A DNA stretch of 64,000 nucleotides from Escherichia coli (GTDB lineage Bacteria; Pseudomonadota; Gammaproteobacteria; Enterobacterales; Enterobacteriaceae). The notes below the pieces were generated by a model that ran no database searches, was not told the origin of the DNA, and saw only the letters and a list, made by a program, of their open reading frames with translations. This document shows, in pieces, positions 5,999 to 12,002 of this stretch. The stretch is taken from assembly GCF_044324785.1 (NCBI RefSeq), contig NZ_CP172127.1; one strand, written 5' to 3'. Within the stretch, counting starts at the first letter, position 1. The number at the start of each line of letters is the position of its first letter. The translations under genes and the position numbers were made by a program.

Positions 5999-6220
5999 AT
6001 GTTTGGCGATAAACTGGAGTTACCACGGAACGGGCGGATAGTGCTCTATATTTCAGATTACAAAGTAACCAGGGCTGAGGTGTTGGAACCGGAAAAACAT
6101 CTGGTCACGTTACCGGACATTATTGAGTTGTATAAGCGGGTCGGATATGTGGACTTGCATCGCGATGATGTTCCCGTTGAGTGTATGGAATGTGAACACC
6201 GGAGGTTTGAAGTTGATTGA
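5999..6220 (+). CDS. Hypothetical phage protein (73 aa)
   Basis: ORF with GGAGGGAAAGG upstream of the ATG. Confidence 0.5.
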   Translation: MFGDKLELPRNGRIVLYISDYKVTRAEVLEPEKHLVTLPDIIELYKRVGYVDLHRDDVPVECMECEHRRFEVD

Positions 6221-6310
6221 ATTGACTTAGAAAAAGCCCGGGGCTATAGTTTCCGCGCAGCCGCAAAATCGGTTGCCGGGATTGGCGTCCCGGATATCTA
6301 AGTGACGCAT

Positions 6311-6331
6311 AGCCGCGTTAGCGGTTTTTTT
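6311..6331 (+). terminator. Weak intrinsic terminator-like hairpin with a T7 run
   Basis: agccgc-gtta-gcggtt followed by ttttttt. Confidence 0.35.
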
Positions 6332-6430
6332 ATGTGTTAGGCACGGCCACATTCGCATTATGGTGGGCTGTGTGGGGGCTTCTGCGGAAGCGCCGGGTTC
6401 ACTTAGCCGGTTACGCCAACCCTGCACAGT

Positions 6431-6463
6431 TCACCACCAGATGATTGGCGTCGCTGGTGGTGA
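6431..6463 (+). promoter_or_regulatory. 10-bp perfect stem-loop abutting the start codon of the Ant-like gene
   Basis: tcaccaccag (6431-6440) pairs with ctggtggtga (6454-6463), with a 13-nt loop. The right arm carries the only SD-like GGTGG and ends at ATG 6463. Confidence 0.5.
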
Positions 6464-7137
6464 TGAAAAAAACACTAAGTGAGGCCACTGCGATGACAAT
6501 CCAAATATCTGCGGAATCCCTTTCTCCGCTACATCATAACCAACTTCCCGTCATCACTACTGAATTGCTTGCCAGTTTGTATGGCACGGAAGTAAATGGT
6601 ATCCAGCAAAACTTCAAGCGCAACATCGCCAGATTTGTCGTAGGAAAGCATTTTTTTAAGCTGGAAGGTAATGAATTACGCGACTTCAAAAACAGACTGA
6701 CAGATAGTCAGTCAGTTGCTAAACATACCCGATCCCTCATTCTCTGGACAGAACGCGGCGCAGCTCGCCATGCCAAAATGCTGGAAACAGAACAGGCCTG
6801 GGAAGTTTTCGAAAAGCTGGAAGATTGTTATTTTAGCCAGCGTCCAGAGAGGCGGAGTACAACTACCGATGACCGTACTCCCTTACGTGATGCCGTTAAT
6901 ATGCTGGTCGGTAAGAAAGGCATGATGTATCCCGATGCCTACACCATGATTCATCAACGCTTCGCCGTCTCTCACATAGAACAACTGTCACAGACGCAAA
7001 TGTTAGAGGCGATTGAATACATCCACTGCCTGCTACTCGATGAAAATCAACCAACCATTCCAGATCACCACTATCAAAAATGGAAAAGTGACCAGAATGC
7101 GCCATGTTGCCAAAGGCGAACATCTGATGACCTTTGA
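6463..7137 (+). CDS. Antirepressor-like protein with N-terminal ORF6N domain
   Basis: LPVITTELLASLYGTEVNGIQQNFKRNIARFVVGKHFFKLEGNELRDFKN matches the ORF6N pattern. Start is uncertain (6445 TTG, 6463 or 6493 ATG). The last ~30 codons overlap another frame. Confidence 0.7.
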   Translation: MKKTLSEATAMTIQISAESLSPLHHNQLPVITTELLASLYGTEVNGIQQNFKRNIARFVVGKHFFKLEGNELRDFKNRLTDSQSVAKHTRSLILWTERGAARHAKMLETEQAWEVFEKLEDCYFSQRPERRSTTTDDRTPLRDAVNMLVGKKGMMYPDAYTMIHQRFAVSHIEQLSQTQMLEAIEYIHCLLLDENQPTIPDHHYQKWKSDQNAPCCQRRTSDDL

Positions 7138-7270
7138 CGCTTTCAAAGAGATCGCTGAGCGGGCAGGGTATCTGGTGATCCACAGCGACAATCTGCGAAG
7201 TATGACACTGGATAAATTGATGGTAATGGGGAAAAAGTCTGCTGTATCCGTTGCTGATTCAGCATTTTGA
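7040..7270 (+). CDS. 76-aa ORF overlapping the Ant-like gene by 98 nt in another frame (separate gene or frameshifted C-terminus)
   Basis: MKINQPFQITTIKNGKVTRMRHVAKGEHLMTFDAFKEIAERAGYLVIHSDNL... looks protein-like. The overlapped tail of 6463-7137 (QKWKSDQNAPCCQRRTSDDL) looks like out-of-frame read-through. Confidence 0.4.
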   Translation: MKINQPFQITTIKNGKVTRMRHVAKGEHLMTFDAFKEIAERAGYLVIHSDNLRSMTLDKLMVMGKKSAVSVADSAF

Positions 7271-7298
7271 CAGGTTGAATGTTTGGCGCGGTTATACT

Positions 7299-7385
7299 CT
7301 ATTTGCGCTTAAAAAGGTATTTAGTCACAACCAGCACGAGGCCGAATACTCTGTCAAAGTACCGCCCATGTAAAACTGTAACGTA
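7299..7385 (-). pseudogene. Decayed 3-prime remnant (~28 codons) of a second copy of the two-TM gene found at 10899-11504
   Basis: ~90% identical to 10899-10986 (same orientation, offset ~3600 bp). It has a 1-nt deletion that breaks the frame. Similarity stops at 7385. Confidence 0.75.
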
Positions 7386-7447
7386 TGTACTTGATGACTA
7401 AGCTGGCACCAGGTTAACACCAGGCGCCAGCTTGAAGGAAACTTCAG

Positions 7448-8371
7448 TTATTGGTTTCTGAGGAAAGCGATTCTTGAAAGGGTCATTTGCGTCTGGCAGT
7501 CGACCATTTTCTTGACTTCAGCATCTGTTCCCTGCATTGAAACTTTACCGCACATAGCATCCTTAGTTTTGATCCACTGACGCTGAGAAGGCAGCAAATC
7601 TTTTTTCTTCGCCGGGGTTAACTTGCTCCAGACGGTACTCAAATCAGAGTCGGCATTCGCAAATGCCATTCGGGACTGATCAAGGCTGTCAGCTTTTTGT
7701 GGCTGAAGTTGTGCCTGTCTCTCTATTTGCTTCTCCGCCTCATACTTAGCCTGTTCCTGCGCCCTGAGTTGCACCTGTTGTTCCGCTTCAATTTGGCTCT
7801 GTTGGGCATCCTTAGCCTGCTGGATTTTCTGCTGCTCAACGATCGGGTTGATAATAGAAAGTGATGTCAGTAAAGCGGCGCCCACTGATATCGGATTATC
7901 AGAAGAGGTTTTTACAAAAACGTTTTTCTGATCGTCGGTCGCCTGCACGGTGTAGGTGATACGTTTGGAAAAGGCGTTTGCGTTGTTCTCCAAAAACAGG
8001 CTTTCCATTTGCTTGTCGAGATTACGATTAAAATTCTTTCTGTAATCATCAGAAAGCTGGACGTATTCGTTCGCAGGTAGAGTCATCGTCACGGTCCCTT
8101 CACAAGTTTTCATTGTGCTGCCCGTGTCACTTGATGTTGTGGAGATTTCAGAGATGGCTAGTTTGATCTTGTCCAATGTGCTTCGTTTGGTCTGATTAGT
8201 GACATCAGGGTATTTATCGACCTGTTCAGAGAGTCCTTCATAAGCAGATTTTTTTAATAAATCCATAAGCGCTGACTGGGTTATTTCCGAAGAACAACCG
8301 ATCACATCTTTTTTGTTATCACAGCCTGTAAGGGCAATGGCGAGTAAGAGTACTGAGTATTTTAATCTCAT
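7448..8371 (-). CDS. Lipoprotein with Q-rich coiled-coil and C-terminal DUF1311/LprI-like domain
   Basis: Signal peptide plus lipobox LLLAIALTGC. Central EQQKIQQAKDAQQSQIEAEQQVQLRAQEQAKYEAEKQIERQAQ. C-terminal QRQWIKTKDAMCG...VDCQTQMTLSRIAFL resembles DUF1311. Opposite strand to the phage early genes. Confidence 0.75.
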   Translation of the reverse strand: MRLKYSVLLLAIALTGCDNKKDVIGCSSEITQSALMDLLKKSAYEGLSEQVDKYPDVTNQTKRSTLDKIKLAISEISTTSSDTGSTMKTCEGTVTMTLPANEYVQLSDDYRKNFNRNLDKQMESLFLENNANAFSKRITYTVQATDDQKNVFVKTSSDNPISVGAALLTSLSIINPIVEQQKIQQAKDAQQSQIEAEQQVQLRAQEQAKYEAEKQIERQAQLQPQKADSLDQSRMAFANADSDLSTVWSKLTPAKKKDLLPSQRQWIKTKDAMCGKVSMQGTDAEVKKMVDCQTQMTLSRIAFLRNQ

Positions 8372-8996
8372 GAATTCCCTTTAGAGTAAGGATTGGTTTT
8401 TAAGACGCGGTCTGTAATCAGTTCCGAGAGCTACAGTAAACAACGCTGAGCACTGAACGCATCACAGGCAAGGTAAAGGCGATATCGGCAAAGGCTGTGA
8501 AACCTTTAATTCAACAGATGGAAACGGTATGCGCAGGATCCTGTAACGACGCTCCCAAAACCGGAAACCTGTAAGGCATGTTTTCGCTGCTGAACTTAAT
8601 ATACGAACCTGCACTATCATGAACATATTTTATATCGTTATACCCCGAGTGATTGTGCCCGGCAATGGATAGTGTCCTGGAGGAACTATTTCTACTGTAA
8701 AAGGTAGACATTTAATTTCAGTGTGGAATTATTCCCTGCTGTTAATAACCATGGCTCTATATGGCACCGAGCGGACTAGTTAACTTGCCTGAAAGCCGCT
8801 ATGAGTGAGGAGCGAATATTGGCACGAGAGGATACCTGAACCATTTTTTGGACATGCGCTAAAAGCGAATGATTAGTTTTATCGGAATATTTACAGTATA
8901 CTTACAAGGCAAGCTTGGCGTGCCGTCTTGGGCGAGATTGCTTAAATTATTTTGTGGATATATCATTCAAACAAAAGATAATAAAATGAGGTTGTT

Positions 8997-9194
8997 ATGT
9001 CATATATTCGCGTAGAGAAAGATGGCCTTCAGTATGAAGCAGAATACTTCCGTAAAGAGGATATGGTCACAGTCTTTGGGGTTAGAGGAGGGCATTCCAG
9101 CGTGGTTCTAAATGGAATGACAGAAGTCGCGGCTGCTCGTACTGCGTTACGAAATCTTATTAGAGAAAATCAGGTTGATCCTCTAACTGATTAA
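8997..9194 (+). CDS. Hypothetical small protein (65 aa)
   Basis: ORF in AT-rich DNA with GAGG 7 nt upstream of the ATG. Confidence 0.45.
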   Translation: MSYIRVEKDGLQYEAEYFRKEDMVTVFGVRGGHSSVVLNGMTEVAAARTALRNLIRENQVDPLTD

Positions 9195-9398
9195 AAATAA
9201 GCCATCTTAACTGAGAGCATATTTTGATATAATTTAGATTAAATCTATTTTGAAGGTTAGTTTGGGATGAGAAGATTACATCAAAACCGTTATTACTAGC
9301 AATAAGTTGTGTAAATCAAATAATACATAATCATGTGGTAACATATACTAAGCGTAGTAAAGTTTTTATATATTCCTGTAACTTTGTGAGAAACTTCC

Positions 9399-10064
9399 AT
9401 GAAAGCCGACAACTTAAGAATTATAGAGAATGGCAAATATGTTTTCGATATGTTCTTGGATACTGGTGAATTTTACTATACAAGTCATGCCTTTGACACG
9501 AGAGAAGATGCAAAAAGCTGGATGGAAGAATGGCAGATTTGGGCAAATAATGTATCGAGTGGGAAAGTAAGTAGTATTTATTATATTTTACAAGTGCCTG
9601 ATACTTGGGCCGGTTCTTCAGATAAAAATAACCCTTACTCGGGACTTTATGTGAAAATAGGGCGTTCCAATAATGTGCTAAAAAGGTTGTCTAACCTGCA
9701 GACAGGTGCATTTGGTCAATTAATATTACACGCTTTGGAACCTGGTGGTTCAGAAAAAGAAAACTATCTTCATGAAAAATTTAGCAACGAAAGACGTCAA
9801 GGTGAATGGTTTGTTTGTACTAAGGAACTTACCAAGCATATATTTACAACATGGTTTAAAAACAAAATGCTCCCACCAGAACATCAAATAAAAATAATGC
9901 AGCTCGCAGAAAGAATAGGTATTTATTCGCATGTTCATACACTAATGGGGGGGAAGCCAGACTTAGTAAACCCATCTATTAGTGAACCTTGGGAATGCGA
10001 AAAATATGTTTTGGTTGATATGATTTATAGCTCTTTAGCAAAGCAAGTTAATCATAAAAAATAA
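9399..10064 (+). CDS. T5orf172 (GIY-YIG-superfamily) domain protein with YegP/DUF1508-like N-terminus
   Basis: Core YVKIGRSNNVLKRLSNLQTGAFGQLILHALEP...ENYLHEKFSNERRQGEWF fits the T5orf172 pattern (KIG.S.N...RL..LQTG...E..LH..F...R..GEWF). The N-terminal YVFDMFLDTGEFYYTSHAFDTREDAKSWMEEW resembles YegP repeats. Confidence 0.75.
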   Translation: MKADNLRIIENGKYVFDMFLDTGEFYYTSHAFDTREDAKSWMEEWQIWANNVSSGKVSSIYYILQVPDTWAGSSDKNNPYSGLYVKIGRSNNVLKRLSNLQTGAFGQLILHALEPGGSEKENYLHEKFSNERRQGEWFVCTKELTKHIFTTWFKNKMLPPEHQIKIMQLAERIGIYSHVHTLMGGKPDLVNPSISEPWECEKYVLVDMIYSSLAKQVNHKK

Positions 10065-10384
10065 AGTGTTACATTTTAACCATACAATTATTGATTCACT
10101 AATGAAGAGGTGATTTAAACGTATGAAGTTTTAATAAGCTCCAAGAATATTTTGTCATACATGGGTTAAAGAGTTATATAATAATATCTGCTTCTGGAAT
10201 ACAGCAGACAAGCACCTGCAGATAAAGGTCTGCTGAGAGCGAGAAGCGGATCATACGTTGGAAGTTGTTTAGGCAAATACGTTATAAACGTATTTGATTA
10301 AATTTACTTGGATCATAGTCTTCAATAACGCTTTATTATATTGTTTTTCATGCAGCAAACAGGTTTACAGGTAGGTAATAAGCT

Positions 10385-10789
10385 ATGAGTGGATGGAAAG
10401 AGTCTTTTACATTAGCAGAACAGATACAATTAGCATTAAATTTAGGTTATGAGGCTGTACCAGATGAAGAGGCATATACTGGGGCATACTTCATTAAAGG
10501 TGGTAAGAAGTGGATCTTTAACATCATCGGTCTCAAAAAGACATTGAATATATCTTCAGATGATGAACTAAGAGGGCAGGATTATGATGTTGATATGTAT
10601 TTCGAAATTCGCCAAAATTGGGCACAATACCAAGATATGATCTTTGGAAGCGAAGATATCACTCCTTCACCTAAAAATGAACTTACTTCAATTTACCATG
10701 ACCTGCAGGTAACGGATGAACCCAGGGAAATGGTGTATCTTTCTGATGGGATGTGGCTGGATCCCAACGGACGAATTGTACAACGATAG
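10385..10789 (+). CDS. Hypothetical acidic protein (134 aa)
   Basis: ORF with AGGTAGG upstream. D/E-rich. No recognisable motif. Confidence 0.5.
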   Translation: MSGWKESFTLAEQIQLALNLGYEAVPDEEAYTGAYFIKGGKKWIFNIIGLKKTLNISSDDELRGQDYDVDMYFEIRQNWAQYQDMIFGSEDITPSPKNELTSIYHDLQVTDEPREMVYLSDGMWLDPNGRIVQR

Positions 10790-10898
10790 CACTCGAACAC
10801 ACTCAGTAATCGTCTATAAGGCCAGCACTTGTTACTTGGTCATTTGGGGTTGCTGGTCTTCTCCATTAAATCGACTAAAGTCTGTTCCATAGAGAGAG

Positions 10899-11504
10899 TT
10901 ACTTGCGTTTAAAAAGGTATTTTGTCACGACCAGCACGAGGCCGAATACCTCTGTCAAAGTACCGCCCATGTACAACTGGAGCGTTAAGTCTTTAAATAC
11001 AAGCCATTCAGCACCAGTGGCAAAAAATACACCATTCATTATCAAAAGCTGGCAAGCAAGGATAATAAGGAACCATTTGCCATAGCGTTTTTTTAGATCG
11101 ATTTCAGCTTCAAAATCTTTGTTGTTGAGTTGTTTGCGCTCATGCTCAGTATCAAGTGAATTCACCTGTTTCACAGATGTGAACTCGGTCAAGATTTTAC
11201 TCTCAGTACGGGTGACTTGTTGAGAGGGGGTAGGAATTGGAATTCTTTTGATTGACGCAGCTACAGCCATTTTGCGAGCTTCGGCAGCTCTTTTTCTGGC
11301 TATTCCGTGAATACGGGCAGACGGTTTTTTTGGAGCATGCGAAACCTTTGTCTGAGGTGAAGTTTCGTCAGGAGACTGAACCGGAGTTTCATCCTCCTCC
11401 GGCTCAACCTCTTCTGCTAACTGACGGTGTAGGTTGAGGGAATCCTTCAGTCGGCGTGCAACTTCCTGTTTGAAACGGCTGTTAAAATCGTCATCCGATG
11501 GCAT
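10899..11504 (-). CDS. Orphan membrane protein: ~140-aa charged/Pro-rich N-terminal region plus two C-terminal TM helices
   Basis: Start is 9 nt after the ImmA-like stop. Hydrophobic segments WFLIILACQLLIMNGVFFATGA and LTEVFGLVLVVTKYLF. The N-terminal part is low-complexity with a K/R patch (KKPSARIHGIARKRAAEARK). Confidence 0.7.
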   Translation of the reverse strand: MPSDDDFNSRFKQEVARRLKDSLNLHRQLAEEVEPEEDETPVQSPDETSPQTKVSHAPKKPSARIHGIARKRAAEARKMAVAASIKRIPIPTPSQQVTRTESKILTEFTSVKQVNSLDTEHERKQLNNKDFEAEIDLKKRYGKWFLIILACQLLIMNGVFFATGAEWLVFKDLTLQLYMGGTLTEVFGLVLVVTKYLFKRK

Positions 11505-11513
11505 TCTAAAGCG

Positions 11514-12002
11514 TTACCCCAACCTCAAGTTCTTTAAACGATAAGTCATCGCATCGTCAGATACGCCAAAATGATGCGCCATTATATAACTTGGTTGGCC
11601 GTCAGCGTGCAGTTTTCTGACCTCATCTACCGGCATCAGAAGTTCTGCTGCGAACTTGTTCGCAAAAATTTCATCAGGATGCGTTCCGGCGCTTGCGGTT
11701 TCGCCACGTAAATCAACGTACTCATATTCATCGCTATGCGATGCTTGCCGGGCGATGTAATGCCCCAACTCATGCCCACATGAAAAACGTTGACGAACTT
11801 TGTTGTCATCACTGTTTAGAAAGATCGCTGGATCTTGATCTTTTTGTTTAATCAGTGCGCCAGAAACTTTCCCAGGAAGATCGGTAATAAAAACATCTAA
11901 TCCCATGTCGTGAGCAATTTTCGCTGGATCAACAGGGAAACCACGCCCGCACCAGAACGTGTCCAGCACTCGCCGGGCGTGCTCTCTTGGGTTGGTAGCC
12001 AT
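11514..12002 (-). CDS. ImmA/IrrE-family (M78, DUF955) zinc metallopeptidase
   Basis: HEXXH as SCGHELGHYI, plus the downstream family motif DEIFANKFAAELLMP. GGAGG 7 nt upstream of the ATG. Confidence 0.85.
   Translation of the reverse strand: MATNPREHARRVLDTFWCGRGFPVDPAKIAHDMGLDVFITDLPGKVSGALIKQKDQDPAIFLNSDDNKVRQRFSCGHELGHYIARQASHSDEYEYVDLRGETASAGTHPDEIFANKFAAELLMPVDEVRKLHADGQPSYIMAHHFGVSDDAMTYRLKNLRLG

Follow-up and report, generated by a model that had tools for sequence, protein, structure and literature searches.

The window analyzed here, a 64,000-nucleotide stretch of Escherichia coli DNA from contig NZ_CP172127.1, encodes at positions 9399–10064 of the plus strand a protein of 221 amino acids (aa) that appears to be a stand-alone, horizontally mobile GIY-YIG nuclease of the T5orf172 clade, built from three parts. 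We give a probability of about one half to the reading that this protein is an autonomous, single-protein nuclease directed against phages or other mobile elements, in defense or exclusion. The resident element would carry the nuclease for its host, and the nuclease would act on invading nucleic acid. The noncatalytic domains could limit the enzyme to cutting foreign nucleic acid, such as DNA that is modified or unusual in structure; alternatively, they could dimerize the enzyme or control its assembly state. Either arrangement would explain why no immunity partner is found with the gene. An earlier note on this DNA, made from the sequence alone, had suggested a role in conflict with other phages. 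The mobile and defense-associated surroundings agree with that suggestion, but the defense function itself is one that we infer from context, as are nuclease activity, substrate, the role of the N-terminal YegP-like domain, and a phage-resistance phenotype. Counterdefense is less likely than defense because the gene is also found outside phages, in a stand-alone integron cassette and in chromosomal islets.

Profile and fold agree on the identity of the catalytic core, and the T5orf172 call made in the earlier note is confirmed by both. Pfam MUG113 (PF13455) matches residues 85–147 (E = 6.4e-10, 39.9 bits for a cut-off of 22.3), and T5orf172 (PF10544) matches residues 74–152 (E = 4.4e-7, 30.8 bits for a cut-off of 20), each above its gathering score. 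The two domains, which have been treated as one family (PMC10448857), are present in the precomputed annotation of all full-length homologues. An AlphaFold model calculated from 26 homologues (predicted local distance difference test (pLDDT) score of 90.4, predicted template modeling score of 0.85) divides the protein into three parts, of which the central one is predicted to adopt the GIY-YIG α/β fold, a three-stranded sheet flanked by helices. The T5orf172 core is thus central, as had been proposed, but the modeled GIY-YIG fold begins near residue 58 (strand 59–66, 'IYYILQV') and not at residue 85. Fold searches covered the PDB and BFVD. Among the viral structures of BFVD, Foldseek retrieved T5orf172, MUG113, and GIY-YIG proteins over the core only, with query-normalized TM-scores of at most 0.36. 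The best match among the sequences of solved structures reached only E = 0.45, and in PHROGs the whole protein matches phrog_8130 (E = 3.6e-78), a family of unknown function.

The C-terminal ~80 residues have neither a Pfam match nor a fold match, which is how the earlier note had left them. The model places helices at residues 142–155, 160–183, and 212–219, and among the 26 homologues His147, Leu158, Pro159, His162, Asn191, Pro192, Trp198, and Asp207 are invariant in this part. When 1.84 billion 50%-identity representatives were searched exhaustively with HMMER, the segment was essentially confined to the family of the 221-aa protein. An independent C-terminal domain was considered and rejected: one protein (P0084) has the segment alone, but its N-terminal part resembles a mobile-element protein, and, judged by eye, the sequence of P0084 is best read as that of a gene broken by a mobile element.

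Alignment of 26 full-length homologues from several phyla gives 37 invariant positions, which in the core include Tyr61, Tyr62, Lys86-Ile87-Gly88, Arg96, Glu121, His125, and Gly135-Glu136-Trp137-Phe138. In a profile alignment to Odn (Gp88) of phage ICP1, Arg148 and Glu180 of Odn correspond to Arg96 and Glu121, and the E180A substitution abolishes the activity of Odn both in vivo and in vitro (PMC8263062). Because the catalytic residues are invariant and Arg96 and Glu121 align with Arg148 and Glu180 of Odn, the active site looks intact as far as sequence can indicate. The catalytic Arg and Glu expected from the earlier reading are therefore kept, but the Glu is Glu121, in an E..LH..F helix, and not the Glu of GEWF. 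Between cassette copies the ratio of nonsynonymous to synonymous substitution rates (dN/dS) of the gene is 0.12–0.19.

This conservation bears on the idea that the protein is a domesticated, noncleaving T5orf172 protein that binds DNA or another ligand and regulates expression, as CapR of the satellite PLE does. CapR is T5orf172-related and acts in PLE antagonism of ICP1 (PMC8096241, PMC10448857), and the former report describes a phage satellite that tunes phage gene expression with a 'domesticated endonuclease' (PMC8096241). T5orf172 was, moreover, first annotated as a DNA-binding domain, a name that BFVD entries keep. A regulator would be expected to relax its catalytic residues, however, and here all of the expected ones, including the Glu essential in Odn, are invariant across phyla. 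Pfam recognizes no DNA-binding module in the protein, and a lone integron cassette would be an odd vehicle for a regulator that has no fixed target locus. We consider a regulatory role highly unlikely.

The earlier note had likened the N terminus to a single YegP/DUF1508 repeat. That resemblance holds for the fold, in that the modeled N-terminal domain matches the three-strand-plus-helix fold of solved UPF0339 proteins. Membership in Pfam PF07411 (YegP/DUF1508) fails, with no match at E ≤ 1 for the 221-aa protein and none at E ≤ 10 for 20 N-terminal domains of the family. The sequence relation is marginal: in an hhalign comparison of the N-terminal domain alignment with E. coli YegP, residues 6–43 fall in register with YegP residues 7–44, the first repeat, at E = 0.0023 for one single comparison and a probability of 12.7%. 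A profile of the domain run against PDB sequences found 2k7i only (E = 1.2). Any likeness in sequence to the YegP/DUF1508/UPF0339 group (E. coli YegP; PDB codes 2k49, 3bid, 6q2z, and 2k7i) lies in this weak in-register alignment to repeat 1, and whereas YegP has a tandem pair of repeats, the 221-aa protein has a single copy fused to a nuclease. The Trp45/Trp48 signature in the helix of the N-terminal domain is specific to the family. DUF1508 is also the N-terminal module of bacterial ubiquitin-like proteins in immunity-related operons. At the N terminus of Menshen NsnA, a sensor role has been proposed for it, together with a PC4/Whirly-like pairing (PMC12065111), and single-domain UPF0339 proteins dimerize, as reported for 6Q2Z (bioRxiv 10.1101/2024.11.21.623966).

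The gene lies in a DNA segment that recurs elsewhere (see Table 1 for coordinates). Its exchangeable nature, suspected earlier, can now be put more sharply: the 1.35-kb cassette around the gene is 84–86% identical (BLASTN) to copies in four other mobile elements, namely a Citrobacter island (loci L012 and L036), an Enterobacter CP4-57-like island (L049), the end of a Morganella prophage (L050 and L051), and an Enterobacter chromosomal islet (L013). With the E. coli prophage, the cassette is found in five distinct mobile-element contexts. All loci share the same sharp right end and diverge directly after ...AGCGGA, and the flanks are unrelated between loci. The copies other than that of the window form a unit of ~1.49 kb with 94–97% identity, despite their different genera and elements. 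Two open reading frames (ORFs) lie on the same strand of the cassette, at the coordinates that had been assigned to them, a 65-aa ORF at 8997–9194 and the 221-aa ORF at 9399–10064. The spacer between them, the ~200-bp AT-rich leader of the earlier description, is 204 bp long with a GC content of 27.5%, compared with 35.3% for the cassette and 48.3% for the prophage. Relative to all four other copies (L049, L050, L012, and L013) the spacer of the window lacks 46 bp, and several of its blocks are conserved across copies. An RNA element in the cassette was considered and dropped. A scan of 8400–10500 with Rfam gave no match; promoter and terminator scans found sites such as the promoter-like one at 9224–9251 in the spacer, but these are not enriched over shuffled sequences; and the 3′ hairpin, with a free energy of −28.8 kcal/mol in the window, is not maintained in the Morganella copy. 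A cassette of 1.35–1.5 kb with its own ends, including the terminal hairpin, may move among prophages, integrase islands, and chromosomal islets.

Sharp ends that are reproduced in unrelated contexts could also be the mark of a selfish homing-type endonuclease, one that cuts nuclease-free alleles and spreads its own cassette without benefit to the host. T5orf172 homing endonucleases of ICP1, T5-like, and other phages share the catalytic domain family of the 221-aa protein and are likewise found at genetic-exchange boundaries; as a class, T5orf172 genes are abundant homing-endonuclease candidates that mark phage recombination boundaries (PMC10448857). The prophage slot in the window is itself polymorphic, with alleles that have the nuclease and alleles that lack it. 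The nuclease-minus allele, however, is no empty site but carries 1.9 kb of unrelated cargo, and because the flanks differ wholly between contexts, homology-driven homing between those contexts is not possible. The phage homing endonucleases reside in lytic phage genomes between conserved genes, whereas the family of the 221-aa protein does not: residence in a phage genome with homologous flanks and an empty allele was not found for it, and 50,697 phage records contain no full-length relative (no place covering at least 80% of the protein). The phage enzymes also carry CapR/DUF723/DUF4397 zinc-finger repeats, of which there are none in the 221-aa protein by Pfam scan and Cys count (two Cys, no CxxC motif), a custom CapR profile not having been used. 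Finally, the Vibrio copies move as attC cassettes, that is, by integron integrase. Homing of this kind is, in our estimate, improbable.

A word-indexed search returned 34 relatives, mostly of 211–242 aa with a few truncated entries, at identities down to 45%. The HMMER search gave 29,644 T5orf172-type matches, of which 12 have E ≤ 1e-30 and approximately five are full-length; the rest cover core positions 81–155 only, from which it follows that the N- and C-terminal parts are peculiar to the family. In a scan of one genome per species, members were found in Escherichia, Citrobacter, Enterobacter, Thiohalophilus, Moritella, Vibrio, Pseudoalteromonas, Photobacterium, and Colwellia, with further full-length members in cyanobacteria (Cylindrospermum, Trichormus, and Oculatellaceae), Dehalococcoidia, Pyrinomonadaceae, and Pirellulales. 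Identity across the full-length members of that scan is 42–57%. To judge from these searches, the full-length architecture is rare yet spread over several phyla. As with the phage records, 72,556 plasmid records hold no place covering at least 80% of the protein.

The gene is autonomous and travels alone, as shown by the lack of neighbors conserved across loci and by a lone cassette in Vibrio pacinii. None of the neighbors in the window is encoded (tblastn) in nine loci of Thiohalophilus, Vibrio vulnificus, and Enterobacter cloacae. A conserved partner gene was sought by all-against-all clustering of neighbors at 20 loci and rejected, the 65-aa gene being the sole recurrent one and only beside the four enterobacterial copies. 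Homologues in V. vulnificus, V. pacinii, and Vibrio penaeicida lie within arrays of attC-type repeats and, as ORFs bounded by such repeats, have the character of integron cassettes. In V. vulnificus (L003) there are 17 copies of an 81-nucleotide repeat, and the gene at 8001–8702 sits between the copies at 7906 and 9303. In V. pacinii (L027) repeats at 9913–9982 and 10710–10779 surround the gene at 10001–10639, and the 797-bp attC-to-attC unit holds this 639-bp gene alone; the arrangement in V. penaeicida (L016) is similar. In the V. vulnificus cassette the nuclease gene is followed by a second ORF, of 150 aa (L003 8846–9298; L004 891–1343), without a counterpart in V. pacinii and without a Pfam or PADLOC match.

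These placements matter for the proposal that the protein is a phage-side weapon or counterdefense factor used in lytic growth, degrading host DNA, competing prophages, or satellites much as Odn of ICP1 acts against PLE. Three of the contexts are prophages (E. coli, Morganella, and Colwellia), and in the E. coli prophage the gene lies between the replication genes and Q and runs in the direction of the early rightward genes. Odn itself is a case in which a T5orf172 nuclease, equipped with a borrowed specificity domain, works for a phage and against a satellite. The family is also found, however, in lone integron cassettes, in islets beside PARIS, and in integrase islands beside Shango, where a phage lytic program would not express the gene because these contexts lie outside phages, and it is absent from the sequenced phage isolates among the 50,697 records. 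We regard a phage-side weapon as improbable, slightly more so than homing.

The reading as a defense or exclusion nuclease draws on the company that the gene keeps. The mobile and conflict-related setting is strongly supported by the five mobile-element contexts, by the defense-gene neighbors compiled in Table 1, and by the integron cassettes in three Vibrio species. Further support comes from the junction itself, where an alternative cargo after the 65-aa gene matches the PADLOC candidate PDC-S15. Three side observations were made at these loci. Beside the cassette in L049, on the minus strand at 6176–7892, a second, unrelated T5orf172/MUG113 protein of 268 aa is encoded divergently with a 302-aa partner, neither with a PADLOC match. 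In Dehalococcoidia (L022) a 548-aa ORF overlaps the homologue; its 320-aa upstream part has no Pfam match and may be an artifact of crude ORF calling. In Cylindrospermum (L020 5962–10582) the homologue and a nitrogenase component 1 gene are ~2.4 kb apart, and the DNA between them encodes a 459-aa protein of unknown function.

The 65-aa protein encoded upstream had been described as an orphan, which it is not: its homologues form 32 clusters, all of them enterobacterial (Enterobacterales) where the source names an organism, the dN/dS of its gene between copies is 0.11–0.23, and its AlphaFold model has a pLDDT of 95, although a fold search was uninformative. Both genes are under purifying selection, and they occur together in five enterobacterial contexts within one conserved cassette, which might suggest a toxin–antitoxin or immunity pair in which the small protein neutralizes the nuclease. 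Their co-occurrence is not obligate, however, as each gene is found alone. The nuclease is without the 65-aa gene in E. cloacae, in the Vibrio cassettes, and in other phyla, and the 65-aa gene without the nuclease is found upstream of an FRG-domain protein, upstream of a 441-aa protein of unknown function, or facing a convergent 253-aa gene. The 65-aa protein has no sequence similarity to the N-terminal domain of the nuclease, and the predicted folds of the two differ. Of the explanations weighed here, a dedicated pair is the one to which we give the least credence.

Because the 65-aa gene precedes unrelated cargo, and because homology to those loci ends within the spacer (at 9206–9258), we conclude that it is a junction marker for exchangeable cargo and not a dedicated partner or antitoxin. 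The FRG-domain protein downstream of it is the one that matches PDC-S15 (6e-33). The nuclease-free copies (L053–L063) lie in P4-type-integrase and CP4-57-like islands of Enterobacterales, where neighboring genes encode the Pfam domains CTD1/CTD2/CTD6, MC2, and MComp1, which we take to be components of proposed conflict systems. The locus thereby also illustrates how a small conserved gene can mark cargo junctions in integrase islands.

Among characterized proteins, Odn of ICP1 offers the closest comparison in kind. Like the 221-aa protein it is small and stand-alone (226 aa), has a T5orf172 core, and keeps the catalytic Arg and Glu; it works in mobile-element conflict, with specificity provided by a noncatalytic N-terminal domain (PMC8263062). 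In Odn, however, that domain is RepA_N-like, binds iterons, and comes from the target PLE, whereas the N-terminal domain of the 221-aa protein has a predicted YegP/UPF0339-like fold. The family of the 221-aa protein has an additional conserved C-terminal extension, and sequence similarity to Odn is restricted to ~45 core residues. Odn is encoded by a lytic phage, whereas the family is found in prophages, islands, and integrons and in none of the phage records searched.

CMoRE (PD-T4-3), a single-protein GIY-YIG type IV restriction enzyme (PMC12923530), is also a single component that joins a nuclease to a noncatalytic domain. It comes with neither a methylase nor an immunity gene and provides the best precedent of a host-safe lone nuclease; its safety comes from sensing phage DNA that contains hydroxymethylcytosine (hmC) or glucosyl-hmC (PMC12923530). 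CMoRE has an N-terminal nuclease and a C-terminal sensor, whereas in the 221-aa protein the order is reversed and the nuclease is central, after an N-terminal domain. The CMoRE motif is GIYxY-YIG, whereas the 221-aa protein has S-I-Y-Y-I...V-K-I-G, typical of T5orf172. By motif, domain order, and sequence similarity the 221-aa protein does not qualify as a CMoRE enzyme, with the proviso for the last of these that the presence of CMoRE in the searched libraries was not verified.

In PADLOC, the check to which the earlier note had pointed, the sole similarity over the T5orf172 core is a weak match of residues 83–157 to the candidate PDC-S57 (E = 0.0037, 14.9 bits), which is a match to the core only and not to the family; apart from this and a weak REase_II match, PADLOC gave nothing for the 221-aa protein. 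In literature on T5orf172, MUG113, DUF1508/YegP, GIY-YIG with integrons or phage-inducible chromosomal islands, FS_GIY_YIG, and PDC-S57, we did not find the family or its architecture described, and the integron-defense preprints searched do not mention GIY or T5orf172. FS_GIY_YIG is a DefenseFinder model name that appears in two genome-survey papers; the model presumably originated in satellite-borne systems. The view that this domain combination is not a described system has thus held, with no literature description found and no PADLOC system matched. A generic annotation exists, and single-protein GIY-YIG nucleases that take part in mobile-element conflict are a known kind of system; the domain combination and the family appear to be new.

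Several points weigh against a role in defense or exclusion. The N-terminal domain is consistently acidic across the family (mean net charge −3.1), and the protein as a whole is not basic (pI ~7), which is unexpected for a DNA-binding specificity module. The hhalign match to Odn has a low probability (5.6%), although it is consistent with the Pfam match. Because the PDC-S57 match is weak and confined to the core, no established PADLOC defense model covers the protein. Co-orientation with early lytic genes means that the gene could act in lytic growth and not in the lysogen. Guilt by association with defense islands would fit selfish or addiction genes as well, and some neighborhoods (Moritella, Pseudoalteromonas, and Oculatellaceae) are uninformative. 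For every member of the family, moreover, it is by inference that an enzymatic and phenotypic role is assigned.

A more specific form of the proposal, that the family is an undescribed single-gene anti-phage system in which the YegP/UPF0339-fold domain is the sensor or gate of a T5orf172 nuclease, is one that we put forward only tentatively. If it is true, the widespread, enigmatic YegP fold would have a first functional role, and T5orf172 enzymes, which have so far been described as phage homing endonucleases or an anti-satellite weapon, would also be used by bacteria in host-side immunity. If it is protective, the ~0.65-kb gene would be a very small single-component nuclease system. Between E. 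coli and groups as distant as cyanobacteria and Planctomycetes identity stays at 42–57%, a tight conservation across phyla which implies that the target is conserved as well. As has been proposed for CMoRE, a GIY-YIG enzyme specific for a modification or structure could find use as a reagent. If the gene is without phenotype, it would be one more moron annotated as a 'GIY-YIG nuclease family protein.'

Table 1. Features of the locus (coordinates in the window) and surroundings of homologues in other genomes
Feature	Coordinates	Strand	Description
Variable cargo slot of the prophage lineage	8772–10876	.	Between the LprI-like gene and the 201-aa gene
Mobile cassette	8901–10250	+	Promoter-like region, 65-aa gene, AT-rich spacer, 221-aa gene, conserved 3′ tail
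65-aa conserved small protein	8997–9194	+	Four strands and a helix (predicted); cargo-junction marker
AT-rich spacer/leader	9195–9398	+	Site of the recombination breakpoint that separates the 65-aa module from the nuclease module
N-terminal domain, residues 1–57	9399–9569	+	Three strands and a long helix, predicted YegP/UPF0339-like fold, acidic
GIY-YIG core, residues 58–141	9570–9821	+	T5orf172/MUG113; R96 at 9684–9686, E121 at 9759–9761
C-terminal extension, residues 142–221 and stop	9822–10064	+	Two helices, then an extended NPS...W...D segment
3′ noncoding tail	10065–10250	+	186 bp, conserved across cassette copies; ends in a long imperfect hairpin at ~10186–10251
134-aa ORF	10385–10789	+	In the variable slot, outside the mobile cassette
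Citrobacter integrase island			Shango upstream (SngA 9e-104, SngB 1e-186, SngC 8e-279); MkoC-like (Mokosh-like) helicase and integrase downstream
E. cloacae chromosomal islet			PARIS AriA/AriB adjoining
Vibrio sp. Of7-15			Eco29kI endonuclease and C5-methylase adjoining
Trichormus			UPF0175/PIN pair (toxin–antitoxin) upstream; AriA/HEC-01-like ATPase downstream
Dehalococcoidia genome			SIR2 protein adjoining
Colwellia			Filamentous prophage (inovirus), directly after Zot
Morganella			Integrase-proximal end of a lambdoid prophage
Enterobacter (L049)			CP4-57-like island with AlpA, DUF932, anti-restriction gene, RadC, CbtA/CbeA

A 1.6-kb stretch that spans the cassette (8800–10400) is present at ≥99% identity in 17 of 5,426 complete E. 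coli genomes, where the 221-aa product is annotated as 'GIY-YIG nuclease family protein' and its neighbors as 'hypothetical protein.' In E. coli RM10042 the region lies within a prophage integrated beside tRNA-Ser and mtfA, and the slot that holds the cassette has replication genes (DnaB-type helicase) on one side and the Q antiterminator on the other. In the common E. coli allele (L066 and L067), homology to the window ends at 8771 and restarts at 10877. Among 570 E. coli genomes that match the region, the match covers at least 80% of its length in only 17, the same number as carry the cassette. The alternative allele (L066 2837–4762) is 1.9 kb of unrelated DNA with a GC content of 34.6% and a 232-aa gene, and most of the records sampled down the match ranking hold this alternative. 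The 232-aa protein (WP_000536231.1), sometimes annotated as 'lysogenic protein,' has no Pfam or PADLOC match, and its gene is preceded by ~1.2 kb of apparently noncoding DNA. The locus cleanly illustrates how cargo can vary at one slot of a widespread E. coli prophage.

The 134-aa ORF in the slot lies beyond the block shared among cassette copies. It has no Pfam, PHROG, PADLOC, or NCBIfam match, and it is not adjacent to the homologues in the nine Thiohalophilus, V. vulnificus, and E. cloacae loci tested. Other insert-like genes nearby are an ORF6N anti-repressor-like gene and, on the opposite strand, genes for an LprI-like lipoprotein and for an ImmA/IrrE peptidase with a 201-aa membrane protein. 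The first of these opposite-strand inserts in the prophage early region (7448–8371, minus strand) encodes a 307-aa lipoprotein-like protein that matches phrog_5094 (E = 6e-186) and ends in an LprI (lysozyme inhibitor) domain (Pfam E = 4.3e-7). The second (10899–12002, minus strand) is a two-gene unit of the ImmA/IrrE metallopeptidase (PADLOC CapP-like, E = 1.6e-25; Pfam Peptidase_M78, E = 1.4e-17) followed by the 201-aa protein, which has a hydrophobic C terminus (phrog_5346). An adjacent helix-turn-helix partner is absent, and the unit could be a protease-controlled membrane effector.

A direct repeat of 86 bp (90.7% identity, 7300–7384 and 10900–10985) flanks the LprI gene, the cassette, and the 134-aa ORF. 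The 3′ end of the 201-aa gene forms the right copy, and the remnant of a similar gene end forms the left one. Natural type I-E CRISPR spacers of E. coli match this prophage at two sites, 8340–8371 and 11762–11793. The former, at the start of the LprI-like gene, is matched by a spacer common to at least eight listed strains, for example strain 222; the latter, within the ImmA/IrrE gene, is identical to a 32-nucleotide spacer of strain JX21CE8.

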